Positions 1,049 to 15,195 are shown, counted from the stretch's first letter. The stretch: DNA of 16,082 nt from a bacterium (GCA_046485285.1 JAWOHE010000070.1:1-16082); one strand, 5' to 3'. The notes: generated by a model not told the origin, from the letters alone. Program-made: numbers and translations.

Positions 1049-2866
1049 TCAGGTCTCGCGGTAGTGTGAGGCCTGGGCCAGGTACATCCGGGCGTAGAGC
1101 TCGCCGAGCTCGAGCAGTTCATGGTGCGTTCCCTGTTCCCGGATCCGCCCCTTGTCGAGCACGTAGATGTAGTCGGCGAGCTGGACCGTTGAGAACCGGT
1201 GGCTGACGAGGACCGCGCTCCGGCCGTCGAGAACCCCGCGGAACTGCTCGAATAGTTCGGCCTCGGCAAGCGGGTCGAGCGCGCTGGTCGGCTCGTCGAG
1301 CACGACGAGCTGGGAGCGGCGCATGAACGCCCGGGCCAGCGCGACCTTCTGCCACTCGCCGATGCTCAGCTCGAGGCCGGACTCGAACCAGCGGCCGAGC
1401 GGCGTGTCGTAACCCTGGGGCAGGCGGCTTATTGCCGCGTCGGCCCCGGCGCGCTTCGCGGCCGCGACGATCCTCGCCCGGTCCGGCTCGGCCGCCGCGT
1501 CGCCGAGCCAGATGTTCTCCCAGGCCGGGAGCTGGTACTGGACGAAGTCCTGAAGGATGACGCTGACCTCCCGGCGCCAGCGGGCCGGCTCGAGCCGGCG
1601 GATGTCGATGCCGTCGACGGTGATCTGGCCGGTGCCGGGGTCGTAGAGCCGGCAGAGGAGCTTGACGAGCGTCGTCTTGCCCGAGCCGTTCGCGCCGACC
1701 AGCGCAACGACCTGGCCCGGGGCAATCGCCAGGCTGACCGCGTCGAGCGCCGGCCGGGAACTGCCCGGGTAGGCGAAGCTGACGCCTTCGAACGCGATGC
1801 CCCGCGCGAACCGTGCCGGGACCGGGAGCGGCTTCGCCGGCGCGGTGACCCTCGGCTGGAGGTCGAGGAACTCGTAGAAGTTGGCGAGGAAGAGGTTGTC
1901 CTCGTAGAGCCCGGCGAGGCCGGCGAGGATGGCCGAGAGCGAGTTGGCCGCGAGCTGGAAGGCCGAGTAGTACATCACCAGGCTGCCGATGGTGATCGTC
2001 CCCCGCCAGGTCTGCCAGGCGATGTAGACGAGCGTGCCGAAGGTGGCGACCGTCACCGCGGCCTGGGCGAGCAGGCCGGCCGCGCTGCGGCGCCGGGCCA
2101 GTACCAGCCTCGCCCGGCGCAGTTGCCGGCGGAGTTCGCGGTAGCGCTGGCGGAAGAGCGCGCCGATGTCGAAGAGCCGGAGTTCCTTGGCCGGGAACGA
2201 GTTCGTCAGCAGCCAGTGGTAGTACCAGGCCCGGCGTTCCTTCTCGGTCTGCTCACGCTCGAAACGGTAGAGCCGGCGCGCGTGGACCATCCGGACGACC
2301 GCGCCGGGCAGGGCGACGACGACGAGCACGAGGGCGACCAGCGGGCTGAGCGCGAAGAGCAGGCCGGCGATGCCGGCCAGCGAGACCGCGCCCCGGCCGA
2401 CCTGGACCAGCCGGTTGACGATGTTGACCGGCCGGTGCATCGCGTCACCCTGGGCCCGGTGGAGGGTGTCGTGGTAGCGGGGGTCCTCGTAGTAGCCGAG
2501 GTCCATCGCGACCGACTGGCCGTGGACGATGTCGGTCACCTTGTCGGACAGCACGAGCGACTGGGCCTGGCCGACGAGCTCGGCCAGCGAGTGCGCGATG
2601 GCGGTGAGGAGCGCCGCGGCCGCGGCAACGCCGACCCAGACGAGCACGCGCTGGAAGCCGGCCGGTCCGCTGCCGGCCGCGATGCCGGCCTGCAGCAGGT
2701 CGACGACCTGCTTGATGGCGTAGAGCCCGGCCAGCGGCAGGAGCCCCTGGACCGCGACGAGGGCCGCGTTGGCGACCGCGAGCCCGGGCGCGCTGGCCCA
2801 GACGAGGCGGACCGCCCGGTCGAGGCGCAGGCCCTTCCGGACCGGGTCCTTCGGCCTCGCGCTCAC
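1049..2866 (-). CDS. ABC exporter, fused permease/ATP-binding protein (probable RiPP exporter, no C39 peptidase domain)
   Basis: 605 aa. N-terminal transmembrane domain, Walker A GANGSGKTT, signature variant LSIGEWQ, Walker B/D-loop VVLDEPTSALD and H-loop SHR. GTGA overlap with the upstream gene. Confidence 0.95.
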   Translation of the reverse strand: MSARPKDPVRKGLRLDRAVRLVWASAPGLAVANAALVAVQGLLPLAGLYAIKQVVDLLQAGIAAGSGPAGFQRVLVWVGVAAAAALLTAIAHSLAELVGQAQSLVLSDKVTDIVHGQSVAMDLGYYEDPRYHDTLHRAQGDAMHRPVNIVNRLVQVGRGAVSLAGIAGLLFALSPLVALVLVVVALPGAVVRMVHARRLYRFEREQTEKERRAWYYHWLLTNSFPAKELRLFDIGALFRQRYRELRRQLRRARLVLARRRSAAGLLAQAAVTVATFGTLVYIAWQTWRGTITIGSLVMYYSAFQLAANSLSAILAGLAGLYEDNLFLANFYEFLDLQPRVTAPAKPLPVPARFARGIAFEGVSFAYPGSSRPALDAVSLAIAPGQVVALVGANGSGKTTLVKLLCRLYDPGTGQITVDGIDIRRLEPARWRREVSVILQDFVQYQLPAWENIWLGDAAAEPDRARIVAAAKRAGADAAISRLPQGYDTPLGRWFESGLELSIGEWQKVALARAFMRRSQLVVLDEPTSALDPLAEAELFEQFRGVLDGRSAVLVSHRFSTVQLADYIYVLDKGRIREQGTHHELLELGELYARMYLAQASHYRET

Positions 2867-4077
2867 GGCCTGCCCGTCCTGAGCCAGCGGACCAGCAGGT
2901 CTTCCCGGCCGCGCCGGGGGTTGTCGACCATCAGCCGGGCCTGGAGCCGGGCGTGAAGCCAGCCTGCCCGGATGCCGTCGCGGAGCCGCAGGGCATAGAA
3001 GCGGTAGAGATGACGTGCGGTACGGGATGCCGGGTACTTCACGGCCATCGCGTCACGAGAGAGGAAGACATGCTTCCAGACCAGCCTTACCAGGCCGCCA
3101 AGCGACCCGGCGCCCCGGCGGCCGGCGAGCGACCCGGGCGGGCGGTAGTCGGACCGGGCGAGAACGGTCTCGCGCGCGACCTCCAGGACGCGGGGCTCGA
3201 TACCGCCCGGCACGAGCTGTTCGAAGACGTCGCCCGGGACTTCGGCCCCGAGCAGGTCGCGGGCAAGGCCGAGCACGAGGCCCGTGTATCGCGTCGCGCC
3301 CCACTCGCGGGCCCGGCGCGCGAACCGTGGCCAGTCCAACTCGCCGCGGAAGCGGTGAACGGTCTCGGCGACGTCGCAGAGGACGTACGGCACCGCGAGG
3401 CCGTGACGATGGCTGAGATGCAGGCACAGGTGCAGGAGCAAGTCCTCTGGCGAGAGCGCGAGCACCTCGACGCCAGCTATCGCGGCCGGACGGGCCCGGT
3501 CCCAGAGCCCGGCAGCGGCCACTCTGAATGGCCCGGTCGGGCGTTCGATGGCCCAGTGAAGGTCAACGGCGAGGTCGCGAATGAAGAGCGTCGGGAGGCT
3601 GGCGTTCCTGCGGCAGTGTCGCTTGATGTCGACCGGGCGCGCGGAGGCACCGCCAGCGGCGAGCAGGACCGCCCGGGCTCTCGGCAGGTCGGCCTTCCGG
3701 ACCATCAGGTCGGCATCGCTCATCGGCCGGAGTGCGGCGTCGCCGTAGACCGCCTCCGCGAGGAACGCTCCCTTGAGCACGATGACCGGAATGCCGGTAT
3801 CGCGCAGGCCGGCGAGCACCGGCCGAAGGCGACGGTAGAAGCGGGTGTTCCTGCCGGCGCTGTCAAGGTAGGCCAGTCGCAGGCGCTCCCAGGCACCGGC
3901 CGGGACCCGGTCCCGCGCCGAGCCCTGCTTCAGGCGCCTGAAGAGCAGGGGCGCGAGGCGGAGGTGGGCGGCCGCGGCGACGAGGCCGTTCCAGTCGGCG
4001 GCCGGCTCAGAGCCGTCGAACAGGTGACGGAGCAACAGGCTGACCGGCCGGGTGTCGACGGCCGAGCGAGCGTTCAA
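2863..4077 (-). CDS. Nucleotidyltransferase family protein (NTP_transf_5-like)
   Basis: Motifs IPVIVLKG, LRPMSDADL (DxD), VDLHW and LSPEDLLLHLCLH. Paralog of 13936..15195. The TTG start overlaps the upstream stop (TTGA). Confidence 0.88.
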   Translation of the reverse strand: MNARSAVDTRPVSLLLRHLFDGSEPAADWNGLVAAAAHLRLAPLLFRRLKQGSARDRVPAGAWERLRLAYLDSAGRNTRFYRRLRPVLAGLRDTGIPVIVLKGAFLAEAVYGDAALRPMSDADLMVRKADLPRARAVLLAAGGASARPVDIKRHCRRNASLPTLFIRDLAVDLHWAIERPTGPFRVAAAGLWDRARPAAIAGVEVLALSPEDLLLHLCLHLSHRHGLAVPYVLCDVAETVHRFRGELDWPRFARRAREWGATRYTGLVLGLARDLLGAEVPGDVFEQLVPGGIEPRVLEVARETVLARSDYRPPGSLAGRRGAGSLGGLVRLVWKHVFLSRDAMAVKYPASRTARHLYRFYALRLRDGIRAGWLHARLQARLMVDNPRRGREDLLVRWLRTGRP

Positions 4078-5648
4078 TCCCGCGCTTCGCTGCCGGAGGC
4101 GAGACTGATAACGGCCTGCCTGAGGGTCTGCTCAGCCACGAACAGGTGGAACGGCGGCCGAATGTACCACCGCCTGAGCCGAAAGTCGTAGTGCCCGACC
4201 ACCTGCCCGCCCATCAGCAGTTTGAGGAACGCCCGGTAGCGGTTGCCGAAGCGCACCGGCCTGGGCCGGAGCCGTCGCGGGAGAAGGCGGTCGAACGGGC
4301 CGAGACCGGCAACAGCGCGGTACAGCGTGTGAGGGAGACGGCCCGCGCTTCTCCGGATGCCCCGGCCCAGGCGCACGCAGCGAAGGACAAGGAGACCTCG
4401 CCACCCGCCGTGGACAACCCGGCGCTTGTCTCCGCGCTGGGCGGCGATCACGCGGCCGGTGATGCTGTCGGCCGGCAGGACCCAGGTGTCATCTTCCCGG
4501 TTGTTGTCGCCGCGGGTGCGCAGGCCGCCCTGCGCATGGCCGGGGACCGGGGACCGGCGACTGACCGAGACTAAGCGGTGCACGACCGTCTTGCCGGTCT
4601 CGGGCGACCTGAAGCAGACGACGTCGCCCGGGCGCACCCGGGCCGGACCGTACGGCCTGACTTCGAGAAGGTCGGGCTCGTCGAGGGTGGGAAGCATGCT
4701 GGTGCCCGTGCAGACCACGCGCAACGCGTCGTCAGCCGTAAGCGAGTCGACCGACACCGGGTCCGGCCGGGGGGCGTCCACACAGGGACCGGGCAAGTCG
4801 CCGACGGGCAGGACCCGCTCGATTTCCTCCCAGAACCTGCCCTCGAGGCTGAACTTCAGCGACCAGGCCGGGATGGCCGCGGCAAGCCCCCGGGCAGTCC
4901 TCAGCGCCTCGATGCAGAGCCGGTGGATGACGTCGACGTCGTTCAGGACGAACAGCACTTCCCGGGCGAGTTCCTCCGCGGACTCCATCGCCAGGGCGGT
5001 CACCCGCGTACCGTGGAGCGGCTCGAGTCGGTCAAACGGCGACTGGTCGAGGAAGAAGAGCGCCCGGAGCGGAACGGCGCGCTCTACGGCCCAAGAGCCG
5101 CCCGGGCCACCATAGAGGAAACGGCTCCAGGTCGGCCAGGGGTGAGCCCAGAAACGGCCCCTGCCGTCGGGCACGACCAGCGTCATGTCGTCGGACAGCG
5201 AGCGCCAGGGCGCGGGCAGGCGGCGGCTGGCAGTGCTCTTGCCGACCTCGGCCGGCCCGCCCATTATGAAACCGCTCCCCCGGTACTCGGCCAGCGCGCC
5301 GTGGAACAGCATCCCGCCCCGGGCCAGGGTCTCGCGGGCAATGAAGGATGCGATTCGCCGCAGTTGGGCAACCCGGGTCTCCTTGTCTGTCGGCGGGGCA
5401 ATCCGACACGCGGCTGCGCCGGGCGTCTCCGGTCCCGTTCGGTCGGACTCACCGGACACGGCGACACACAACTCGCGCCCGGCCTCGCCCGGCCTGCCCG
5501 ACCGGCAGACTGAGCCCAACTGCATTACTCTGCCCAGTTCGGCCACGATCTCCGTGGCCTGGTCATCGGCCGGCCGAATGAGCCACCGCTGGCCATCGGC
5601 CAAGGCAAGTCTCAGCCCAAACAGCAAATACGATGGAGGTGCTGGCAT
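4074..5648 (-). CDS. scmC: ScmC-like HPr-kinase-type P-loop domain fused to a C-terminal S24/S26 (signal peptidase I-like) peptidase
   Basis: N-terminal half has FHGALAE, GPAEVGKST, LSDD and HPWPTWS. C-terminal half has GTSMLP (Ser codon 4698-4700), GDVVCF, VVHRL (His codon 4578-4580) and TRGDNN. Confidence 0.82.
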   Translation of the reverse strand: MPAPPSYLLFGLRLALADGQRWLIRPADDQATEIVAELGRVMQLGSVCRSGRPGEAGRELCVAVSGESDRTGPETPGAAACRIAPPTDKETRVAQLRRIASFIARETLARGGMLFHGALAEYRGSGFIMGGPAEVGKSTASRRLPAPWRSLSDDMTLVVPDGRGRFWAHPWPTWSRFLYGGPGGSWAVERAVPLRALFFLDQSPFDRLEPLHGTRVTALAMESAEELAREVLFVLNDVDVIHRLCIEALRTARGLAAAIPAWSLKFSLEGRFWEEIERVLPVGDLPGPCVDAPRPDPVSVDSLTADDALRVVCTGTSMLPTLDEPDLLEVRPYGPARVRPGDVVCFRSPETGKTVVHRLVSVSRRSPVPGHAQGGLRTRGDNNREDDTWVLPADSITGRVIAAQRGDKRRVVHGGWRGLLVLRCVRLGRGIRRSAGRLPHTLYRAVAGLGPFDRLLPRRLRPRPVRFGNRYRAFLKLLMGGQVVGHYDFRLRRWYIRPPFHLFVAEQTLRQAVISLASGSEARD

Positions 5649-5753
5649 CTTGTCCGGCTAGGCGCTCGCGCTACACATCACGACAGCTTCTCCGCTACCG
5701 ACCGCAAGCCACCTGCTACGGAATCAGTTGTCTGCCGCTACCGACTCAACGGT

Positions 5754-5768
5754 GGGGCGGGCCGCCCC
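5754..5768 (-). terminator. Short GC hairpin downstream of precursor 1
   Basis: GGGGCG-ggc-CGCCCC, 12 nt beyond the stop codon. There is no U-tract, so it may stabilise the transcript rather than terminate it. Confidence 0.3.
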
Positions 5769-5780
5769 TCGCGCCGCTAC

Positions 5781-5960
5781 CTAGAAGTTCTGTACGTTAG
5801 AACCGGCCAGGCAGCGGTTCTGGCCCAGAACGCCGAATCCGCTGGCGCATACGTCCTCATTGCCCTCAGGCCCGTCGCCGCACGAAAACGTGCCGGTCGT
5901 GGCATCACTCAGGCGGACGGCGCACGGCGCCGTGTACTTCAGGTCGTCAGACTGGCTCAT
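5781..5960 (-). CDS. RiPP precursor peptide 1 (59 aa, ScmA-like, 3x CxxG); not in the ORF track
   Basis: Manual translation: MSQSDDLKYTAPCAVRLSDATTGTFSCGDGPEGNEDVCASGFGVLGQNRCLAGSNVQNF*. RBS GGAGGT (5966-5971) is 5 nt before the ATG. It has its own promoter and aligns without gaps to precursor 2. Confidence 0.9.
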   Translation of the reverse strand: MSQSDDLKYTAPCAVRLSDATTGTFSCGDGPEGNEDVCASGFGVLGQNRCLAGSNVQNF

Positions 5961-6001
5961 CAGATACCTCCGTGGCGTTGGTTTTGCATCTGCCTGAATT
6001 C

Positions 6002-6030
6002 ATTGTACCCCCCCCCGGCCCTGCTGTCAA
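6002..6030 (-). promoter_or_regulatory. Sigma70-type promoter of precursor 1: TTGACA-17-TACAAT with G9 in the spacer
   Basis: -35 at 6025-6030, -10 at 6002-6007, spacer 6008-6024. Near-consensus in high-GC DNA and conserved upstream of precursor 2. Confidence 0.8.
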
Positions 6031-6078
6031 GAAAAACGGTGGGCCTTCCCCGTCCTCGGATTCACTGCCCGCGACGCT

Positions 6079-6376
6079 TCAATTCCCGGTCCTGCGCTGC
6101 GCCCGGGCAGGGGGAAACAGCCCGCGGCGGACCGCCTCGGCGCACAGAGGGCGGGGCGCAACCAGTTGTCCGCTCTGGACATGGTTGTCGGCCACACAGC
6201 CGGTCCGGCAAACCCGGGCGAATATGCACCGCGCGCAGATGCCCGGGAAGCTGTCCGGGTCGGCCAGGGCCCGGCGTAGACGGAGAACCGTCGGGTTGTT
6301 CAGCCAGATGTCGCGCACGCTGTCTTTGCCCGGTTGCCCGCATGCCACCTCGGGGCAGGTGGAGCCGATGCCGCAC
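6079..6376 (-). pseudogene. Duplicated 3' fragment of the scmF-like gene (SPASM region)
   Basis: 6095-6376 matches 7045-7326 at offset 950 with 10 mismatches in 282 bp by manual count. It lacks the radical SAM core and any clear start. Confidence 0.9.
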
Positions 6377-6394
6377 CGCGTTCCGCGGCCAGGC

Positions 6395-6548
6395 GCCCGA
6401 CCGGCAGACGGGGTCCAACTGCAGGATTGCGCCCAGCTCGGCGGCAAGCGCCGCGGCCCTGTCGTCAGCCGGCCGCAACGAGCCGCCGCTGGCCATCGGC
6501 GAGGACGAGTCTCAGGCCGCGGGATGGATGAGAGGGGCGTGCTGACAT
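6395..6548 (-). pseudogene. Frameshifted 5' remnant of a scmC-like gene
   Basis: From ATG 6548 it reads MSARPSHPSRGLRLVLADGQRRLV, then after a 1-nt insertion RPADDRAAALAAELGAILQLDPVCRSG. This matches the N-terminus of 4074..5648 (GLRLALADGQRWLIRPADDQATEIVAELGRVMQLGSVCRSG), about 73% nt identity by manual count. Confidence 0.85.
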
Positions 6549-6650
6549 CGGAGTCGACGCTGCACCTGCGTCAAACGACAAACCGGCCAGTTCGCCACTG
6601 GCCGGATACCATTCGCTACCTAATCAGTTGTCTTCTTCTGCCGGTGCAAC

Positions 6651-6678
6651 CGCGACGCGGCCGGGCATTCGCGTCGCG
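6651..6678 (-). terminator. 9-bp GC stem-loop immediately after the precursor 2 stop codon
   Basis: CGCGACGCG (6651-6659) pairs with CGCGTCGCG (6670-6678) around a 10-nt loop. No clear U-tract. Confidence 0.5.
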
Positions 6679-6855
6679 CTAGTTCTGGACGGTGGAGCCG
6701 GTGTTGCAGATGTTGATCTGCTGGACCGCGAACCCGCTCTCGCACAGGTCGGCGTTGCCATTGCGGCCGTTCGTGCACGCGAACGTGCCGGTCTGGGCAT
6801 CGCTCAGACGCACGGCACACGGAGCCATATATGTCGAATTGTCGGACTTCACCAC
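6679..6855 (-). CDS. RiPP precursor peptide 2 (58 aa, ScmA-like, 3x CxxG)
   Basis: Likely start is GTG at 6855, 5 nt after GGAGGT (6861-6866), inside track ORF 6679..6981. Sequence: MVKSDNSTYMAPCAVRLSDAQTGTFACTNGRNGNADLCESGFAVQQINICNTGSTVQN*. It is 35/58 identical to precursor 1. Confidence 0.9.
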   Translation of the reverse strand: MVKSDNSTYMAPCAVRLSDAQTGTFACTNGRNGNADLCESGFAVQQINICNTGSTVQN

Positions 6856-6952
6856 TTCATACCTCCGATTCGCGGACTCCGCGAGAGCCCGCTCATTTTT
6901 GTCTAAAACGAACTGCTGCCAACTGGCGACCCTGTGCCAGTTGAACTGAGAC

Positions 6953-6981
6953 ATAATACCCCCCCCGGCGTCTGCTGTCAA
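6953..6981 (-). promoter_or_regulatory. Sigma70-type promoter of precursor 2: TTGACA-17-TATTAT with G8 in the spacer
   Basis: -35 at 6976-6981 (overlapping the scmF stop codon), -10 at 6953-6958. Confidence 0.78.
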
Positions 6982-8186
6982 GAGATACCTTCCTCGCCAC
7001 CGACCCGGGCTCCAGAGTCAACGCCGCCCGGGCTACCGGCCCGCCGCTGCGCCCGGGCAGGGGGAAAGAGCCCGCGGCGGACCGCCTCGGCGCACAGGGG
7101 ACGGGGCGCAACCAGTTGTCCGCTCTGGACATAGTTGTCGGCCACGCAGCCGGTCCGGCAAACCCGGGCGAATATGCACCGCGCGCAGATGCCCGGGAAG
7201 CTGTCCGGGTCGGCCAGGGCCCGGCGCAGACGGAGAACCGTCGGGTTGTTCAGCCAGATGTCGCGCACGCTGTCTTTGCCCAGTTGCCCGTATGTCAACT
7301 CGGGGCAGGTGGAGCCGATGCCGCACAGGGCGTACCGGTTCGTGCCGAGAATGCCCAGAATCCCGAGCACGCCGCAGTCACCGCAGGAACCGCCCGAGCG
7401 TCCCAGACGGCGGCGCGACGACAGGGCCGGGGGTATGTTGAGGATGACACCAACCGGCGCGCGCGGATGCAGATCCTCGTCAACGTAGCGCGCCAGCTCC
7501 ATCGTCTCGTCGAAGTCCAGGGCCTCGCCGCGCTCGTGCATCGTGATTCCGCGGCCGGTCCGGGTCACCGGGTTGAGCTTTACCGATGCCGCGCCGCGTT
7601 CCGCGGCCAGGAGCACGACCGGCTCGACCTGCGCGCGGTTCCCGCGGTGCACGCTCATGATGACCTGCGTGTTCTTGAACCCCGCATCCGCCAGGTGGGA
7701 AAGCCCTTTCAGGGCCGCGTCGAACGCGCCCTTGACGTTCCGAAAGGCGTCGTGGGTCCGGGCATCCGACCCGTCCAGGCTGACAGAAACAAAGGTGACC
7801 CGCGTCTTGTCCTTGAGGTGACGGGCGGTCTCGGCGGTCAGCAGGGTGCCGTTTGTCTCCATGAGGAGGCTCAGTCCCTCAGCGGTCAGCAGGTCGACGA
7901 CCTCCAGGAACCGGGGATGGAGCATCGGCTCGCCGCCGGTCAGCTTGGCCGAGCCCAGGCCTAGCGTCTTGCCTTCGCGCACCGCCTCGCGCAGGGAGTC
8001 CACGTCCACGCAGTCACCCGGGTCAGGCTTCCCGTCAATGAACCGGGGCACGATCCAGCAGTGACGGCAGCGCAGGTTGCAGCCGCTGGACAGGTAGATG
8101 TAGAACGAGCGCAGGGGGGGTACGCCCTCGGGCAGGTCAGGCGGCGGTGCCGGCGTCACGGGCGCGTCGGCCGGCTCACTCGGCAT
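6978..8186 (-). CDS. scmF: Radical SAM/SPASM peptide maturase, ScmF-like
   Basis: CNLRCRHCWI (CxxxCxxC), LTGGEP and ETNG. SPASM cysteines in CGVLGILGILG...ALCGIG...CARC...C...C...C. Position in the cassette fits. Confidence 0.85.
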   Translation of the reverse strand: MPSEPADAPVTPAPPPDLPEGVPPLRSFYIYLSSGCNLRCRHCWIVPRFIDGKPDPGDCVDVDSLREAVREGKTLGLGSAKLTGGEPMLHPRFLEVVDLLTAEGLSLLMETNGTLLTAETARHLKDKTRVTFVSVSLDGSDARTHDAFRNVKGAFDAALKGLSHLADAGFKNTQVIMSVHRGNRAQVEPVVLLAAERGAASVKLNPVTRTGRGITMHERGEALDFDETMELARYVDEDLHPRAPVGVILNIPPALSSRRRLGRSGGSCGDCGVLGILGILGTNRYALCGIGSTCPELTYGQLGKDSVRDIWLNNPTVLRLRRALADPDSFPGICARCIFARVCRTGCVADNYVQSGQLVAPRPLCAEAVRRGLFPPARAQRRAGSPGGVDSGARVGGEEGIS

Positions 8187-9321
8187 CTGGAGCCTCCTCG
8201 CCCTTGAAGATTCGATAGCAGACCAGCGGGTCGCGCGCGTTCAGCCTGCCGTACCGGGCCGCCACCGTCGCCGGGCAGCCGCCGGTGCAGAAGCCGGCAT
8301 AGCGGCAGTCCCGGCACTCGGGCAGGAACGAGAGCGGGATGTCGCGGCGGTAGCGCAAGGCGTTTATCGCCGGGCTCGAGCGCCAGGCCTCGGACAGGGA
8401 GTGCAGGCCGACGACGCCCATCACCAGCTTCGGCAGCAGGGAGCAGGGCACCATCGTGCCGTCGTGCAGTACCGCCATGTTCGAGAAGACGCAGCCACAG
8501 GCAGAGAGCGTGCCTCGTCCGGGCAGGCTGTCCCGGCCGTGCGCGAGCGAGTCCTCAATCACGGCGAAGCGCCGGGCCAGGTCCAGCGGGCCGGCCGAAG
8601 CGTTTATCCGGCCGTTGTACTTCTCGTTCAGCCTGGTCAGCGATGCCATCGCACGCCGGCGGTCGGCAGGGGTGAGGACAACGCTGCTGCCATCGCAGCG
8701 CGCCGAGCCCATTTGCGCGACCTCGTTGGTGCTGAAGCCCGCGAGCCCGACGTCCTCGAAGAGCAGGCGGGCGATGTTCTCGATGTCGTCGAGGTTGGCC
8801 CGGTTCACGGTGACGCGCACGGTCATCGGGAACCCGGCGCCCTTGAGCAGTCGCAGGCCGGCGAGCGCCCGGTCAAAGCTCTTCGGGGGACGGCTCCGGT
8901 CGTGGATTTCGGCCCGCGACCCGTCAATCGAGACCTGGATCGAATCCAGGCGCAGGCGGCGCTTGCCGACTGCGAAGGCCCGCAACGTGTCCTCGCTGAT
9001 GAGCGTGCCGTTGGTCAGTATCGAGTAGCGCATCCGATTGGCTATGATGCCGTCAATCAACTCGAAGAGGTCCTGCCGCATGAAGGTCTCGCCCCCAGAG
9101 AGTGACACGCGCTGGACCCCGAGCCGGCCCGCCTCCTCGAACAGGCCGTGCCAGCGCGCGGCCGGCATGTCGCTCAACGCCGCCATCTCGTCGGCGTAGA
9201 AGCAGTAGCGGCACTTGAGGTTACAGCGCCCGGTGATGGAGAGGTTCAACTGCCGCGGGGCGCGCGGCAGGCCGGGCGGCGGCACGGTCAGGTCAGGGAC
9301 CGGCGGGGCTTCAGTGCTCAT
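8176..9321 (-). CDS. scmE: Radical SAM/SPASM peptide maturase, ScmE-like
   Basis: ITGRCNLKCRYCF, LSGGE and LTNG. SPASM motifs CGC...DGTMVPC...CRDC...CTGGC...C. Confidence 0.85.
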   Translation of the reverse strand: MSTEAPPVPDLTVPPPGLPRAPRQLNLSITGRCNLKCRYCFYADEMAALSDMPAARWHGLFEEAGRLGVQRVSLSGGETFMRQDLFELIDGIIANRMRYSILTNGTLISEDTLRAFAVGKRRLRLDSIQVSIDGSRAEIHDRSRPPKSFDRALAGLRLLKGAGFPMTVRVTVNRANLDDIENIARLLFEDVGLAGFSTNEVAQMGSARCDGSSVVLTPADRRRAMASLTRLNEKYNGRINASAGPLDLARRFAVIEDSLAHGRDSLPGRGTLSACGCVFSNMAVLHDGTMVPCSLLPKLVMGVVGLHSLSEAWRSSPAINALRYRRDIPLSFLPECRDCRYAGFCTGGCPATVAARYGRLNARDPLVCYRIFKGEEAPDAE

Positions 9322-9595
9322 CAGGCGAGGCGATGATGAAGTCAGGAGTCAGCGACTGGATAAACTTCTCCGCGTCCTGCGCGGCCTGTTCCGGCGTCAC
9401 GTCCGGGTAGGTGGCCGCAACGTGGCCGGCAATCTCGGCAAGGGTCCGGGGCGCGGCGAGCAATGCCCAGATGGCACGGCCCGTGCGGTTGAGCAGGACG
9501 GTGTTGTCCTTGTCCGGGTTGTAGAGCATCGCCCCGTCCTCGCCCTCGTCGACGCAGGAGACAACGTCGCTCGCGCGGTAGGTTTTTTCGCTCAT
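9311..9595 (-). CDS. PqqD family RiPP recognition element (RRE)
   Basis: 94 aa. LYNPD...LLNRTGRAIWALL...TLAEI...Y...DAEKFIQSL is the PqqD-fold pattern. Confidence 0.88.
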   Translation of the reverse strand: MSEKTYRASDVVSCVDEGEDGAMLYNPDKDNTVLLNRTGRAIWALLAAPRTLAEIAGHVAATYPDVTPEQAAQDAEKFIQSLTPDFIIASPDEH

Positions 9596-9891
9596 CAGGC
9601 AGTATCCTCCAGCAGCACTTCTTGTCCGACAAAGCCCTCCTCGACCAGCTTCAACAGCAGGGCGCGGACGTCCTCGGCCACAGTGTCCGGCGCGTCCGGG
9701 AAGCGGCCGCGGATTTCGGCGACAATCTCCCCGGTCGTGCGCCAGCCGTCAACCAGGTTCCAGACCAGCGCCCCGGTGTGGTTCACGGCCATCGCGCCCG
9801 CGGTGTCCGGGTTCACCAGCAGGGTCCAGCCGTCAGCGCCTTCTTCCCGCACCACTGCCGGGTTGGCTATCGGCCGGTCCGGAACTGTCAT
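9595..9891 (-). CDS. scmD: PqqD family RRE, ScmD-like
   Basis: 98 aa. PIANPAVVREE...LVNPDT...VNHTGALVWNLVDG...DVRALLLKLVEEGFV. Confidence 0.85.
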   Translation of the reverse strand: MTVPDRPIANPAVVREEGADGWTLLVNPDTAGAMAVNHTGALVWNLVDGWRTTGEIVAEIRGRFPDAPDTVAEDVRALLLKLVEEGFVGQEVLLEDTA

Positions 9892-10084: not shown

Positions 10085-10162
10085 GTTGTCCGGCTATTTG
10101 GAGAATACCGTTATGTTCGATGACAGGCTTTTCGACCACGGAGCAGGCCCGGAGGAGGAGTG

Positions 10163-10342
10163 ATGGATGATCGAGACCGCAAGACCTGGCAGACGCCGAA
10201 GCTCAAGGTCCTCGCGAGGGTGAGGTCAGAGGAGAGAGTCTTGGAGGCCTGTAAGACCCCCATCAAGAACGGCCCGTCCGCAGCCGTGGCTTGCTACAAA
10301 GGCTCCTCGGGACAGGAGTGCGAAGTGATAGCCAATTCGTAG
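10163..10342 (+). CDS. RiPP precursor peptide 3 (59-60 aa; WxxPxL leader, 3 Cys, C-terminal Ser)
   Basis: MDDRDRKTWQTPKLKVLARVRSEERVLEACKTPIKNGPSAAVACYKGSSGQECEVIANS*. RBS GGAGGAGG at 10151-10158, alternative GTG start at 10160. First gene of the radical SAM operon. Confidence 0.85.
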   Translation: MDDRDRKTWQTPKLKVLARVRSEERVLEACKTPIKNGPSAAVACYKGSSGQECEVIANS

Positions 10343-10505
10343 CGGATCCTGCGACGTCAACACAAGCGGGAGCCTAGTCAGCAGAACCATCCTGACAGCC
10401 ATCTGCGATTCGACCGGCTGAAAAGGAGCCGTCTGCGGGTGGAGAGGCTGAATCCCCTGCCCGTTTCCTTGCCTGCCTCTTGTTCGCCGGTAGGGGCATC
10501 CTGAC

Positions 10506-11501
10506 ATGACGGATGACGCCCGGCTTGACCGCGTCCTTCCCGGCCCGCCGGCACCGGACCCGCGGAAGCCGGGGGCCCACCACCGCCTGTTCGGAATCGG
10601 TGGCATCACCATCCGGGTCGAGTCCGACCTGCCCTTCACCGACCGGACCTTCGACCCCAAGTTCCAGCAGTTCGAGCTCGACGGCCCGGGCCCTGACACG
10701 GTCACCATCCGCCACCACTTCGAACTGCCGGCAGTCGACCCCGACACCCTCGGCCGCGAGGTCTATCGCAAGCCGCCCTGGTCAATCTACCGCCGCGACA
10801 GTTGCTGGGTCTACCTCGGCGTCCTGCCCGAGGAGCTCGGCTCCGGCCTGTTCAAGGTCGCGGTCTTCAACGACGACCACTCGCTCGGCGACCTGTACCA
10901 CCCGGGCGACGGCGAGTTCCGCGAAGGCGGGCTCCACTCACTCACGATGTTCCCGACCGACCAGATTCTCCTCACGCCCCTGCTCGCCGACCGGCAGGCC
11001 TGCTTCCTCCACTCCGCCGGCGCAATCCTGAACCGCCAGGGCCTGCTCTTCGTCGGCCATTCCGAAGCCGGCAAGTCCACCACCCTGAAACTCATCAAGG
11101 ACCGGGCCGAAATCCTCTGCGACGACCGCAACATCGTCAGGCGAGAGACAGGCGAAGCCGGCAGTGCCGGGTGCGGGCACTCGCGTGGAACGCGAATCCG
11201 GGTCTACGGGACCTGGAGCCACGGCGAACTGCCTCAGGTCTCCCCGGCCTCGGCGCCGCTACGGGCAATCCTGTTCCTCGAGAAGTCCGGCGAGAACAGC
11301 CTGGCCCTGCTCGATGACCGCAGTGACATCCTCGGCCGCCTGCTCGGCTGTGTGATTCGGTCGCTGGAGACCCAGGGCTGGTGGCAGAAGACCCTCGGCG
11401 TGGTCGAGGCGCTCTGCCGCGAGGTCCCCTGCTACCTGATGCGGTTCGACAAGAGCGGACAAATCCTTGAACAGCTCGAGGCGCTGACGGAAGTCCGATG
11501 A
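10506..11501 (+). CDS. HPr-kinase-like P-loop protein (putative peptide kinase, ScmC/PadeK-related)
   Basis: FLHSAGA, Walker A GHSEAGKST, LCDD and YGTWSHG. Confidence 0.8.
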   Translation: MTDDARLDRVLPGPPAPDPRKPGAHHRLFGIGGITIRVESDLPFTDRTFDPKFQQFELDGPGPDTVTIRHHFELPAVDPDTLGREVYRKPPWSIYRRDSCWVYLGVLPEELGSGLFKVAVFNDDHSLGDLYHPGDGEFREGGLHSLTMFPTDQILLTPLLADRQACFLHSAGAILNRQGLLFVGHSEAGKSTTLKLIKDRAEILCDDRNIVRRETGEAGSAGCGHSRGTRIRVYGTWSHGELPQVSPASAPLRAILFLEKSGENSLALLDDRSDILGRLLGCVIRSLETQGWWQKTLGVVEALCREVPCYLMRFDKSGQILEQLEALTEVR

Positions 11502-12706
11502 CCGATGACCGACGACCGGTCTCCCCTGCCGCCTCTCGCTACGTCGAGCGGGTCCGGGACGACCAGCCCGAGCGCTGGCTGAAGCACCGGCCCCTGCTCG
11601 AGCGGTTCGACATCGAGCTGACCGAACGCTGCAACAACAACTGCATCCACTGCTACATCAACCTGCCGATGGCCAACCGCGCGGCCCGCGAGCGCGAGAT
11701 GCCTGCCGACAGGGTCAAGGCCATCCTGACCGAGGCCGCGGGCCTCGGCTGTGTGGCGGTGCGCTTCACCGGCGGCGAGCCGCTCCTGCGCGAGGACTTC
11801 GAAGACCTTTACCTCTTCGCCCGCCGGCTCGGGATGAAGGTGTCGCTCGCGACCAACGCCCGGCTCATCACGCCCGGTCTCGCCGACCTCTTCGCGCGGG
11901 TCCCTCCCCGGGAGCCGGTCGAGGTCACCGTCTACGGGATGAGGGCGGACTCCTGCGACGCCGTCACCCGCGTTCCGGGCTCGCACGCCGAGGCCCGGCG
12001 CGGCATTGAGCTGCTCACCGCCCGCGGGGTCCCGGTTGTCATCAAGGGCGCGGTCCTGCCACCGAACCTCGGTGAGTTGGACGAGATCGAGACCTGGACC
12101 GCCTCGCTTCCCGCGGTGGAACAGCCGCCGGCCTTCACGATGTTCTTTGACCTGCGCGGCCGTCGGGACTCGGACGCCCGGAACCGCCGGATTGCCGGAC
12201 TGCGCGTCTCGCCCGAGGCCGGCGTCGCCCTGCTGAACCGGCACCGCGAGCGCTACCTCGGCGATATGCGCCAGTTCTGCGCGAAGTTCATCGGCCCGCC
12301 CGGCGACCGACTGTTCACCTGCGGCGCCGGTCACGGGACCTGTGTCGACGCGTACGGCAGGGCGCAGGCCTGCCTCCTGCTCCGCCACCCGGCGACGGTC
12401 TACGACCTCGCGAACGGCACGCTCAGGGAGGCTCTCACCGTCTTCTTCCCGCGCTTGCGGGAGATGAAGGCCGCGAACCCGGACTACCTCGCCCGCTGTG
12501 CCCGCTGTTTTCTCAGGGGCCTGTGCGAGCAGTGCCCGGCCAAGTCTTGGGGCGAGCACGGCACCCTCGACACGCCGGTCGAGTACCTCTGCGAGGTCGC
12601 CCACGCCCAGGCGCGCGACCTCGGCCTGCTCGCGGAAGGCGAACAGGCCTGGGAAGTGACCGACTGGCGCGGCCGGGTCGAGAGGCTGAAGACCGATGAG
12701 GATTGA
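11498..12706 (+). CDS. Radical SAM/SPASM peptide maturase
   Basis: ELTERCNNNCIHC, FTGGEP and ATNA. SPASM motifs CGAG...AC...CARC...CEQCPA...YLC. Confidence 0.92.
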   Translation: MTDDRRPVSPAASRYVERVRDDQPERWLKHRPLLERFDIELTERCNNNCIHCYINLPMANRAAREREMPADRVKAILTEAAGLGCVAVRFTGGEPLLREDFEDLYLFARRLGMKVSLATNARLITPGLADLFARVPPREPVEVTVYGMRADSCDAVTRVPGSHAEARRGIELLTARGVPVVIKGAVLPPNLGELDEIETWTASLPAVEQPPAFTMFFDLRGRRDSDARNRRIAGLRVSPEAGVALLNRHRERYLGDMRQFCAKFIGPPGDRLFTCGAGHGTCVDAYGRAQACLLLRHPATVYDLANGTLREALTVFFPRLREMKAANPDYLARCARCFLRGLCEQCPAKSWGEHGTLDTPVEYLCEVAHAQARDLGLLAEGEQAWEVTDWRGRVERLKTDED

Positions 12707-13904
12707 CGGAGGACCGAAGACCGAAGACGGGCAGCCGGTCCCCGATCCCCGGTCGCCGGTCCCCGGTCATCCTTCTTCCGCCTACTCCTCATTGGTCCCT
12801 CTCCCCGGCTTCGAACTCTGGGACCGGATGAAGCAAAGGCACGCGCCGCTGGCCTTCGACATCGAGGTCACCGCCCGATGCAACAACGACTGCCGCCACT
12901 GCTACATCAACCTGCCGGCCGGCGACCCGGCCGCCCGGGCCGCCGAGCTCACGCCGGCCGAAATCGAGCGCATCGCCCGCGAGGCGGCGGGGATGGGCGC
13001 GCTGTGGTGCCTGCTGACCGGCGGCGAGCCGCTCCTGCGCGACGACTTCCCCGAGGTCTACCTCGGGCTGAAACGACTCGGGCTCCTCGTTTCGGTCTTC
13101 ACCAATGCCTGCCTGGTCAGACCCGAACACGTCGAGCTGTTCCGGAAGTACCCGCCGCGCGAACTCGAAGTCTCGGTCTACGGCGCAACCGAGGCGACCT
13201 ACGAACGGGTGACGCGCCGGCCCGGGTCGTTCCGCGCCTTCCGCCGCGGCCTCGACCTGCTGCTCGCCGGCGGCGTCAAGGTCCAGCTCAAGGCGATGGC
13301 CCTGCGCTCGAACGTCCACGAGTTCGCGGAGATCGGCCGCTTTTGCCGGGCGCGGACCGCGGACGACTACCGCTTCGACCCGCTCCTGCACCTGCGCTTT
13401 GACCGCGACGAGGCGCGCAACGCGGAAATCCGCGCCGAGCGGCTCTCGCCGGCCGAGGTCGCGGCGGTCGAGCGCGCGGACGCGGAACGGTTCGGGACGC
13501 TCAAAGAACACTGCAGCCAGCTCATCCTGCGCGAAGCCGCACGCGCGACCGGCAATCACCTGTTCCAGTGCGGCACGGGCCGGGACAGCTTCAGCGTCAG
13601 CTTCGACGGTCGGCTCCGGCTCTGCTCGTCGCTCTGGCACCCGGACACGGTCTATGACCTGCGCCGCGGTACGCTCGCCGACGCCTGGCACAACCACGTC
13701 CCCCGGGTGCGGGACCTGCGCTCGGACCGGCCGGACTTCCTCGCGCGCTGTCACGCCTGCCCGATTGCCAACCTCTGCCTCTGGTGCCCGGCCCACGCCT
13801 TCCTCGAAACCGGCGAGCTCGACGCCCCGGTCGACTACTTCTGCGAGGTCGCCCGCGCGCGGGTCGCCGGGCTAGGAGTAGTGGAACCGCCGGGCCAGGG
13901 CTGA
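12696..13904 (+). CDS. Radical SAM/SPASM peptide maturase (paralog of the preceding gene; start uncertain)
   Basis: EVTARCNNDCRHC, LTGGEP and FTNA. SPASM motifs CGTG...LC...CHAC...CLWCPA...YFC. The first ~25 aa derive from heptamer repeats; alternative ATG at 12828. Confidence 0.9.
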   Translation: MRIDGGPKTEDGQPVPDPRSPVPGHPSSAYSSLVPLPGFELWDRMKQRHAPLAFDIEVTARCNNDCRHCYINLPAGDPAARAAELTPAEIERIAREAAGMGALWCLLTGGEPLLRDDFPEVYLGLKRLGLLVSVFTNACLVRPEHVELFRKYPPRELEVSVYGATEATYERVTRRPGSFRAFRRGLDLLLAGGVKVQLKAMALRSNVHEFAEIGRFCRARTADDYRFDPLLHLRFDRDEARNAEIRAERLSPAEVAAVERADAERFGTLKEHCSQLILREAARATGNHLFQCGTGRDSFSVSFDGRLRLCSSLWHPDTVYDLRRGTLADAWHNHVPRVRDLRSDRPDFLARCHACPIANLCLWCPAHAFLETGELDAPVDYFCEVARARVAGLGVVEPPGQG

Positions 13905-13935
13905 GACAAAAGCAGGACCAGGGGCCGGGCCGGGT

Positions 13936-15195
13936 ATGGACTCCTCACCGCCAGCCTCCTCTTCTCCGCTCCTCCTCTGCCTGCAGGCGAGCCTCGAGCC
14001 GGGCCGGCCCGGCACGCCCCGCGACCCGGCCGGCTGGACAAGGGTCACCGACCTCGCCTGCCGGCAGGAACTCGCGCCTCTGCTCTACCACGAACTCGGG
14101 CAGGCCAGGCTCCGTGACCGGGTGCCGGGCCCGGACCTCGCGCGGCTCGAACGCGCCTACTACCTCAACGCGGACCGGAACATCCGTATCTACCGCGAGC
14201 TCCGGCCGGTTCTCGCCTGCCTGCGCGACTCGGACATCCCGGTCATCGTCCTTAAGGGCGCCCTGCTCGCCGAGGCGGTCTACGGCAACATCGCGCTCCG
14301 GACGATGGGCGACGTCGACCTGCTCGTGCCGAGGGCGGGGCTGGCGCGGGCCCGGGCGGCCCTCGTCGCGGCCGGTTGCGCGCACGCCGAAGGCGACATC
14401 GAGGCCGCCTGCCGGGTAAGCCACCAGCTTGACGCGTTCGTCGCCGAGGGCCTGTCCGTGGAAATCCACTGGACAATCGAAAGGCCGACCAGCCCCTTCG
14501 CCATCGACACCGCCGGCCTCTGGGCCCGGGCCCGGCCGGTCCGCGTTGCCGGCGTCGAGGTGCTGACCCTCTCCCCGGAGGACCTCCTGCTCCACCTCTG
14601 CCTGCACGTCGCCTACCACCACGGGCTCGCGGCCGGGCTCACGCCCTTCTGCGACATCGCCCGGGTGATTGAGTGCCATCGCGCCGGGCTCGACTGGCCC
14701 CGGCTCGCGCGAACGGCCGGTGACTGGGGTGCCGCGCGCCACGCCGGCCTCGCGCTCGAGCTTGCCCGCATCCTGCTCGGGGCCCGGGTCCCGCGCGAGG
14801 CGCTCGAGCGACTCGTCCCGGGCGGCATCAGCCCGACCCTGCTCGATACCGCCCGCGAATGCGTCCTCGCGTCCTCGTCTCTCCGACAATGGAAGCCCCG
14901 CTCGCTCTACGAGTTGTTCGGCGCCGAGTCGCCCGCCGACGGGCTCACGGTCGTCCGCCGGCGGCTGTTCATGTCGCGGGCCGGCCTGGCCGCGAGATAC
15001 TCGTCTGCGCGCGGTCAGCGACAGCCCGGCTCCCTCCGCGCGCGCTGGTTCGGGCACCTCGCGCGGTCCTGCTGGTCTTACTTCGTGAGACCGCGGCTCG
15101 CGCGACTCGGGTTGCTCGGCCGCGGGCACGACCGCGGCGTGGCGCTGGCGGACTGGCTGGGCCGGACCGGGACGCGCGACAACCAGTCGAGATAG
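13936..15195 (+). CDS. Nucleotidyltransferase family protein (NTP_transf_5-like)
   Basis: IPVIVLKG, LRTMGDVDL, VEIHWTIERPT and LSPEDLLLHLCLH. Close paralog of 2863..4077. Confidence 0.88.
   Translation: MDSSPPASSSPLLLCLQASLEPGRPGTPRDPAGWTRVTDLACRQELAPLLYHELGQARLRDRVPGPDLARLERAYYLNADRNIRIYRELRPVLACLRDSDIPVIVLKGALLAEAVYGNIALRTMGDVDLLVPRAGLARARAALVAAGCAHAEGDIEAACRVSHQLDAFVAEGLSVEIHWTIERPTSPFAIDTAGLWARARPVRVAGVEVLTLSPEDLLLHLCLHVAYHHGLAAGLTPFCDIARVIECHRAGLDWPRLARTAGDWGAARHAGLALELARILLGARVPREALERLVPGGISPTLLDTARECVLASSSLRQWKPRSLYELFGAESPADGLTVVRRRLFMSRAGLAARYSSARGQRQPGSLRARWFGHLARSCWSYFVRPRLARLGLLGRGHDRGVALADWLGRTGTRDNQSR

Follow-up and report, generated by a model that had tools for sequence, protein, structure and literature searches.

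A three-part scar of scmC and scmF fragments between two precursor genes of a SynChlorMet-type peptide-modification cluster

We analysed a 16,082-nucleotide (nt) stretch of bacterial DNA (GCA_046485285.1, JAWOHE010000070.1:1-16082; hereafter the window, with positions counted from its first letter), focusing on the segment at 6079-6548. This segment is a scar within a SynChlorMet-type (SCM) peptide-modification cluster, itself uncharacterised, and it is made of non-functional pseudogene pieces of scmC and scmF. Along the minus strand one finds, in order, scmE, scmF, P2, the scar, P1 and scmC, where P1 and P2 are small precursor genes, in agreement with an initial annotation made from the sequence alone. 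The scar consists of a remnant of the 5' end of scmC (scmC'), a short fragment from the middle of scmF and a copy of the scmF 3' end. The mid-scmF origin of positions 6377-6394, and hence the three-part structure, is newly found here. The two copies of the surrounding unit have diverged too unevenly for a single duplication of uniform age. Of the possible histories we tentatively favour recent capture of a diverged precursor cassette, to which we give somewhat less than an even chance.

Anatomy of the scar and divergence of the duplicated unit

The full-length scmF gene is the source of the second and third pieces of the scar, and the 5' end of scmC is the counterpart of the first (Table 1). 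The initial annotation had described a two-piece chimera of scmC and scmF whose joint lay near 6377-6394. The location of the joint holds, and its sequence can be assigned: positions 6365-6405 match scmF positions 7583-7623 at 38 of 41 nt, microhomologies on each side included, and 7583-7623 is the sole other site in the window, on either strand, that matches 6365-6405 at 30 or more of 41 positions. The scar is therefore composed of three pieces rather than two, with the mid-scmF fragment overlapping the third piece by 10 nt and the first by 8 perfectly matching nt. The third piece corresponds to positions 259-352 of the TIGR04251 profile (E = 3.8e-19).

Both joints lie in short shared sequences. 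At the first (6395-6405), where scmC' meets mid-scmF, there is a perfect microhomology of 8 nt (10 of 11 positions). At the second, between the mid-scmF and 3'-scmF pieces, 268 bp are absent between 10-nt direct repeats, which in intact scmF lie at 7583-7592 and 7315-7324. Joints on 8-11 shared bases are the usual leavings of illegitimate recombination. The first event joined scmC at about codon 51 to scmF at about codon 190, giving an original unit of ~1.17 kb, and a second, later event deleted the 268 bp inside the partial scmF. The other SCM-like cluster in the window (10506-15195) was considered as a source of the scmC' and scmF pieces and rejected, as its proteins are ~25-32% identical and no copy of the repeat is found there.

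The scar lies in a unit that is present twice, head to tail, with 7326-6395 corresponding to 6376-5496 by repeat finder, local alignment and in-register comparison. A single local alignment covers 5487-6385 against 6388-7337. Positions 6086-6376 and 7036-7326 are 96% identical over 291 nt at an offset of 950, while 5496-5576 and 6395-6475 (77%) and 5577-5618 and 6477-6518 (83%) correspond at an offset of 899/900. Across the whole unit the copies are offset by 950 nt within scmF-derived sequence and by 895-900 elsewhere, because the leader region upstream of P2 holds ~55 extra bases. A unit of ~900-950 bp present twice had been proposed initially, with ~96% identity in the scmF copy (10 mismatches in 282 nt), ~73% in the scmC remnant and ~60% between the peptides; our comparisons bear this out, with 272 of 283 nt identical in the scmF block, 115 of 151 (76%) in the scmC remnant and 35 of 58 amino acids (60%) between P1 and P2.

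Identity across the unit ranges from 96% to 57% (Table 1). The scmF block and the scmC 5' end differ strongly in their proportions of identical sites (Fisher test, P = 1e-9), and a maximum chi-square scan places a breakpoint at 7044/6094, the observed value being reached in none of 500 permutations. Synonymous divergence (dS) is 0.084 in the scmF block and 0.58 in the scmC 5' end, where non-synonymous divergence (dN) is 0.255. Counted directly, synonymous differences occupy 6 of 75 sites in the former and 17 of 43 in the latter (P = 6e-5). To calibrate for unequal constraint, we used the orthologous sequences of the related locus L001, against which the scmC 5' end shows a rate 2.9 times that of the scmF block. 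Scaled by this ratio, two copies of equal age would be expected to show ~23 differences in the scmF block, and 11 are observed (P = 0.004); as the scar copy has been decaying, this test errs on the conservative side. Together with dS, this rules out constraint alone as the cause of the unevenness. For comparison, nt identity between the scmF block at 7044-7326 and its orthologues is 85% in L001 and 83% in L002.

The arrangement thus shows the head-to-tail copies and new joint of a tandem duplication, but not its uniform divergence. It also has the form of a conversion tract, with sharp borders at 6093/6094 and at the joint and with diverged paralogous flanks. At its 3' edge, the block of high identity stops where the conserved ScmF domain ends. 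We reject a single duplication of uniform age. The initial annotation had likewise doubted that one simple tandem duplication could give so uneven a pattern, and the permutation, rate-calibrated and dS results uphold that doubt. Uniform divergence was the outcome it had named as telling against a mosaic origin, and neither the self-comparison nor the segment identities found it.

Decay of the scar and age of the two cassettes

In scmC', an extra base at 6476 shifts the reading frame, and a stop follows after 27 codons; there is no further in-frame stop. A tryptophan that stands in all nine relatives compared is replaced by arginine. The overall dN/dS between scmC' and scmC is 0.44-0.49, compared with ~0.55-0.6 estimated for a remnant that was neutral throughout, and relative-rate tests at the nt level with three outgroups were not significant (P = 0.48 to 1.0). 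The scmF copy retains an open frame with five non-synonymous differences inside the block. Three derived changes (Y to C, L to P and Y to H) fall at residues invariant in 8 of 8 relatives, which indicates that the scmF copy is decaying; the polarisable synonymous differences of the block are also derived in the scar copy. Three further long open reading frames across the scar gave no family match. Composition gave no donor signal: GC content is 62.7% in the functional scmC 5' end and 72.7% in the remnant, a difference explained equally well by start-region effects.

As its scmF frame is open, positions 6079-6447 could encode a stand-alone SPASM C-terminal module of 122 amino acids that works on P1. 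This open reading frame carries the TIGR04251 match given above, and another locus, L014, likewise has an open scmF 3' fragment with a possible start codon. We nevertheless consider a working module very improbable, given the three substitutions at invariant residues, a candidate start codon (TTG) that lies inside the out-of-frame scmC' with no Shine-Dalgarno motif read upstream, and a terminator-like hairpin upstream.

One scan of genome contigs yielded 80 related loci from species-representative genomes, a set in which neither the window's own genome nor the contig that encodes P0004 and P0007 is represented. P2 shares 46 of 58 amino acids (79%) with the 58-amino acid peptide P0004, and P1 shares 47 of 59 (80%) with P0005, whose contigs are at most 1,340 bp long. 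P0004 is encoded on a 7,560-bp contig together with P0007, a ScmC that is 78% identical to the one in the window. The peptide identity matrix groups P1 with P0005 and P2 with P0004, leaving the L001 peptide outside. The presence of P1-type and P2-type peptides in other assemblies means that the cassette lineages predate the last identity of the two scmF copies. On these comparisons, the two peptide types separated before the P0004 and P0005 lineages did, and the scmF copies were identical much more recently.

ScmC and P0007, its closest outside relative, also differ unevenly. In residues 81-280, ScmC and P0007 are identical at 189 of 200 positions, and in residues 1-80 at 48 of 80. The N-terminus of ScmC matches the more distant P0008 at 48 of 73 positions, so P0007 is no better in this region. 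This N-terminal drop means that the precursor and the N-terminus of ScmC together make up, within the clade, a segment that diverges fast or is exchanged independently of the conserved flanks.

Possible histories of the join

Capture of a cassette, gene conversion after an old duplication, and collapse of a longer array all fit the observations. The first two were the alternatives proposed in the initial annotation; both stand, and the evidence does not separate them. In the history that we favour, a donor segment consisting of the scmF 3' end, tail, promoter, P2 and scmC 5' end would have come from a related strain or a paralogous cluster. On one side it would have integrated via homologous pairing in the well-conserved scmF, and on the other it would have been joined illegitimately, through microhomology, to the middle of the resident scmF, by homology-facilitated illegitimate recombination or template switching. 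The resident scmF from mid-gene onward would have been left as a remnant in front of P1. The 96% block would then reflect conservation of that flank in donor and resident alike, with ~3% of later decay, the parts at 60-78% would reflect old divergence of the two cassettes, and the join would be young relative to both.

Several observations favour a young join. High identity extends over all scmF-derived DNA up to the joint, including 17 of 18 nt beyond the 268-bp deletion. The scmC' remnant keeps its ATG, has a single frameshift and has a dN/dS below the neutral estimate, and the comparison of ScmC with P0007 gives a pattern of conserved flank and diverged cassette. The locus also offers what capture calls for, namely a possible homologous anchor in the scmF block and a joint with 8 nt of microhomology. 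Other observations weigh against this history. Derived amino acid changes (outgroup-polarised and read by eye) number ~9 in scmC' and 3 in the functional copy, and unique nt changes at codon positions 1 and 2 are distributed 12:2, 9:4 and 7:6 between scmC' and scmC with three outgroups. Although these counts are small, the excess in scmC' would fit a long pseudogene phase, that is, an old join. The scmC' peptide matches P0007 at 30 of 51 positions and the resident ScmC at 32 of 51, and no donor-like relative was identified. L005 and L006, the single pair of closely related loci that was compared, have a precursor roughly as well conserved as its flanks, with similarity breaking down only in the scmF tail and spacer. 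Cassette hypervariability is therefore not general. Furthermore, the window appears to be an entire contig of a metagenome assembly, the longest contig listed for its own proteins being 16,082 nt long.

A real though lesser possibility is an old tandem duplication of ~1.17 kb, from mid-scmF to scmC codon 51 via microhomology, combined with scmF gene conversion. A scmF remnant of ~580 nt would have been repeatedly overwritten from the functional scmF, would then have lost 268 bp, and would have decayed by ~3-4%. No foreign DNA is required, and the sharp-edged tract of high identity inside diverged flanks, the differences that are mostly derived in the scar copy and the excess of derived non-synonymous changes in scmC', including the change at the invariant tryptophan, would all be accounted for. 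A remnant of 580 nt would also be a better substrate for conversion than the 154-nt scmC' piece, and passages of PMC13500794 call conversion a frequent event within biosynthetic clusters, in the case of polyketide synthases (PKS) and non-ribosomal peptide synthetases (NRPS). However, ~470 bp of junk DNA would have had to persist since before the split from the P0004 and P0005 lineages, and so would 283-nt direct repeats only 950 bp apart, an arrangement that invites loop-out deletion. The conversion tract would also have to match exactly all of the scmF-derived DNA, and the 268-bp deletion would have to postdate the last conversion, as the mid-scmF piece matches at 17 of 18 nt. In addition, ~20 amino acid differences would be expected (an estimate from dS) in the 41 polarisable codons of scmC', where 13 are observed. 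The third route, which we find improbable, starts from two once-complete scmF-P-scmC units, or from P-scmC units with a partial scmF, in which the scmF copies were kept alike by conversion. A recent microhomology-mediated deletion from codon 51 of the upstream scmC into the middle of the downstream scmF would have collapsed them, so that the scar would be a deletion joint. This would explain both the high identity over all scmF-derived DNA and a scmC' that looks functional until recently (its ATG, its single frameshift and its dN/dS), and tandem P-ScmC-P-ScmC modules and extra precursors are present in L036, L005 and L006. Against it, there were no tandem same-strand full copies of scmF among the listed tblastn matches in L001-L044 (with L021 and L022 partly covered), and homogenisation of scmF and an additional deletion would still be needed.

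The remaining explanations are weaker. P1 and P2 strain variants could have been stitched in tandem during assembly, or the molecules could be chimeric products of amplification; the apparent identity of the window with a complete metagenomic contig and its conserved flanks around variable middles, a classic substrate for graph mis-joins, fit such an artefact. We regard it as slightly less probable again than a collapse. The joints share only 8-11 nt and 10 nt. Short-read assemblers use k-mers longer than 8-11 nt, and the junction sequence should occur in reads, which argues against a simple graph mis-join. The private substitutions, frameshift and 268-bp deletion of the scar copy would not be expected from mis-joined functional alleles, and there is an independent scmF 3' repeat in L014. 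Least credible of all is that the unit duplicated in tandem once, recently, and that rapid diversifying selection then acted on one of the precursor cassettes. In its favour, the cores of the precursors are hypervariable throughout the family. Against it, dS is also high (0.58), the precursor-to-scmC spacer and the tail are less than 60% identical, and P1 and P2 are each closer to a relative in another assembly. This explanation is contradicted by dS, non-coding divergence and peptide relatives alike.

Alongside recent capture as the favoured history, a broader reading can be put forward, one that we think unlikely on present evidence. In this WOR-3-like clade, a cassette consisting of the scmF tail, promoter, precursor and ScmC N-terminus may be exchangeable as a block, with recombination anchored at fixed places on either side, in the conserved scmF 3' block and the conserved ScmC core. 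If so, the scar would record, caught in the act, how one strain added a cassette from another strain, rather than replacing its own, through one homologous joint and one microhomology joint, and SCM clusters would be natural exchangers of cassettes for thioether-type peptides. Loop-out between the 283-nt repeats would, in that case, also permit P2 to be lost reversibly.

The cluster, its precursors and related systems

Each of the SCM enzymes of the main cluster was assigned by profile matches, not all of which reach curated cutoffs (Table 1). ScmC exceeds the TIGR04249 cutoff (160.6 bits against 125, E = 5.2e-47), whereas ScmE (370.3 bits) and ScmF (351.4 bits), although best matches by a wide margin, fall below the 400-bit equivalog cutoffs of TIGR04250 and TIGR04251, and the two tandem PqqD-family genes score 62.3 and 32.2 bits with the ScmD model TIGR04248, whose cutoff is 100. 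The scmC start at 5648 is backed by the parallel N-terminus of P0007, which favours it over the stored gene call (P0006, 483 amino acids) that begins 41 codons downstream. Residues 307-401 of ScmC match the signal peptidase I model TIGR02228 (1.9e-12), with a weak PF10502 match. This S26-like domain is a likely leader protease; "signal peptidase I" is also the source name of many of the 434 homologues. The nearest ScmF relatives among the fetched loci are 81-82% identical and come from two metagenome-assembled genomes (MAGs), followed by several MAGs of candidate division WOR-3 at 66-72%. From these matches, the host organism is probably WOR-3-like. No Rfam model matched the window at its gathering score.

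Table 1. Pieces of the scar, segments of the duplicated unit, and features of the surrounding cluster
Feature	Position	Strand	Evidence or comparison
Scar piece 1: scmC' remnant, 51 codons with ATG	6395-6548	-	counterpart: scmC 5' 51 codons, 5496-5648
Scar piece 2: mid-scmF fragment	6377-6394 (unique part)	-	17/18 in unique part
Scar piece 3: pseudogene copy of last conserved ~95 scmF codons (SPASM C-terminal part)	6094-6376	-	
Diverged copy of scmF C-terminal tail	6031-6093	-	scmF frame ends at stop 6079-6081
Unit: scmF 3' block	7044-7326 vs 6094-6376	-	272/283 identical
Unit: scmF tail	6981-7043 vs 6031-6093	-	34/60 aligned identical
Unit: scmF-stop-to-precursor spacer			54/69 identical + 57 gapped bases
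Unit: precursor gene segment			121/174 identical
Unit: precursor-to-scmC spacer			76/130 identical
Unit: scmC 5' end	5496-5648 vs 6395-6548	-	115/151 identical (76%)
P1 precursor, 59 amino acids, 4 Cys	5781-5960	-	GGAGG ribosome-binding site 5 nt upstream
P1 promoter-like site, TTGACA-17-TACAAT	6002-6030	-	11/12 sigma-70-like matches
P2 precursor, 58 amino acids, GTG start, 4 Cys	6679-6855	-	GGAGG ribosome-binding site 5 nt upstream
P2 promoter-like site, TTGACA-17-TATTAT	6953-6981	-	11/12; -35 hexamer overlaps scmF stop codon
Terminator-like hairpin, 9-bp stem with 7 GC pairs, then T-rich tail	6573-6605	-	TTTGTCGTTT
ScmD pair, PqqD-like	9595-9891, 9311-9595	-	PF05402, E = 1e-14 to 1e-15
ScmE	8176-9321	-	TIGR04250 top match, E = 8.5e-111
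scmF, full-length radical SAM/SPASM maturase, 402 amino acids	6978-8186	-	TIGR04251, E = 6.5e-105; PF04055
scmC, full length, 524 amino acids, ScmC domain + S26 signal-peptidase-like domain	4074-5648	-	TIGR04249
PF14907 nucleotidyltransferase	2863-4077	-	
ABC exporter	1049-2866	-	

The leaders of P1 and P2 are nearly alike (Y-x-A-P-C-A-V-R-L-S-D-A-x-T-G-T-F), and their cores differ while retaining three cysteines. The GTG start of P2 at 6855 is backed by its 58-amino acid relative P0004 and by a GGAGG placed as in P1; the stored call (P0003, 49 amino acids) begins at an internal ATG. Three sigma-70-like sites were found in 5500-7100, compared with a mean of 0.1 in 50 shuffles. The terminator-like hairpin (stem 6605-6583) lies downstream of P2 and upstream of the scar, in a spacer with a folding z of -2.2 (5 of 200 shuffles fold equally well). 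Both cassettes look live, each with its own promoter-like site and ribosome-binding site, and a single enzyme set (two ScmD, ScmE, ScmF, the ScmC-peptidase and the ABC exporter) probably now serves both precursors. In both precursor promoters (5961-6030 and 6856-6980) the 17-nt spacer contains a run of 8-9 G (C on the plus strand), a homopolymer that could vary in length and so alter the spacer.

P1 matches the precursor-family hidden Markov model with E = 2.5e-21, being itself a training sequence. Of the 37 related loci whose sequence was long enough, 23 have a same-strand relative no more than 900 nt downstream of scmF according to a profile built from P1-like peptides, and 15 of these 23 lie outside the training set of the profile. 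P1, P2, P0004, P0005 and the L001 peptide had no match to the ScmA model TIGR04252 at E <= 10. By position and features, P1 and P2 would thus work as precursors of the cluster without being members of ScmA.

We compared the window and the loci L001-L044 each against itself. A direct repeat of the scmF 3' end was found in one other locus only, L014, on a contig from an archaeal (Methanomicrobiales) MAG, where 185 nt (718-902) recur at 2448-2632 with 86.5% identity. Before the second copy lie a precursor (1116-1319) and, on the reverse strand, a truncated piece of a thioesterase gene (1967-2386, PF00975 positions 6-88 of 226), and the contig ends inside the repeat. The precursor region of L017, L018 and L039 contains short tandem repeats, and there are extra precursor matches in L005, L006, L013 and L036. 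Precursor amplification is therefore common in SCM clusters, and readable scars of the flanking genes are rare (2 of 45 sequences examined). L005 and L006 also have the ScmD pair duplicated in tandem (D2-D1-D2-D1, 72-74% nt identity; 4364-5757 in L005 and 3270-4522 in L006), as well as a second precursor after scmC and a second gene with a peptidase domain.

The cluster resembles SynChlorMet (NCBIfam/TIGRFAMs ScmA-ScmF, TIGR04248 to TIGR04252) in its gene set and order, with two PqqD-like ScmD genes, ScmE, ScmF, a small cysteine-containing precursor directly after scmF, and ScmC. It differs in that ScmE, ScmF and ScmD are best matches that fall below the equivalog cutoffs, that the precursors lie outside the ScmA model, that ScmC is fused to an S26 peptidase-like domain, and that a scar separates two precursors. 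A literature search, outside which lay ~1.7 million PMC articles, found no publication naming SynChlorMet, TIGR04248 to TIGR04251 or PF27840. Microhomology-mediated tandem duplication and homology-facilitated illegitimate recombination are general bacterial mechanisms. The locus resembles them in its head-to-tail copies, in the joining of scmC codon 51 to upstream mid-scmF at 8 nt, and in the secondary deletion between 10-nt direct repeats; unlike in a plain duplication, which is insufficient here, the copies are unevenly diverged.

Clusters for RiPPs (peptides made on the ribosome and modified afterwards) with several precursors offer a further parallel. Cyanobactin clusters can carry several core sequences (PMC13500794), and prochlorosins (PMC10783134) are another such case. 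One enzyme set, several precursors, similar leaders (here the shared YxAPCAVRLSDA) and different cores are common to these clusters and to the locus described here. What characterises this locus is that the footprint of the second precursor's arrival is still readable, in the form of pseudogene fragments from the genes on either side, joined at microhomologies. The 283-nt tract (~300 nt with the mid-scmF piece), with 96% identity and sharp edges between flanks at 57-78%, is likewise reminiscent of gene conversion within biosynthetic clusters, which is called very common and is discussed for PKS and NRPS modules in PMC13500794. Here, however, the recipient of the putative conversion would be a dead fragment and not a working domain. 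Multi-precursor RiPP clusters and recombination or conversion in biosynthetic clusters are established themes (PMC13500794). The locus adds a well-preserved case from an unstudied family of clusters; it is no new kind of system.

The scar records how a cluster gained a second, different precursor, by what is fairly ordinary gene-cluster evolution. Substrate acquisition is usually inferred from end states; here an intermediate is preserved at base-pair resolution, with microhomology joints, dead flank fragments and two precursors that appear to be separately promoted. This makes it a concrete, testable case of precursor diversification. In addition, P1 and P2 represent two natural substrate variants for an uncharacterised radical SAM/SPASM pair and could be useful for working out the roles of ScmE and ScmF.

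A second, divergently transcribed SCM-like cluster occupies 10160-15195 on the plus strand. It begins with a 60-amino acid, cysteine-containing open reading frame (10160-10342) that matches the ScmA precursor model weakly (E = 0.004; 17.3 bits, with the cutoff at 35), followed by a ScmC/HprK-like protein (10506-11501) and two radical SAM proteins (11498-12706 and 12696-13904), one of them with SPASM. It also encodes a further PF14907 nucleotidyltransferase (13936-15195), which shares 53% identity with the one in the main cluster. The two PF14907 genes have 689 nt in common at 72% nt identity, inverted (1249-1923 and 12212-12890 in minus-strand coordinates), and a stretch of 200 nt is shared at 74% by this cluster's pair of radical SAM genes; both pairs represent older paralogies inside the window. 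On the complete WOR-3 chromosome that carries locus L003 (3,261,475 bp), there are two different ScmC proteins (P0062 and P0072), which suggests that two or more SCM clusters can be present in a genome of this group. In L003 itself, scmC, a nucleotidyltransferase gene and an ABC gene lie upstream of scmD-E-F, with no precursor match after scmF.

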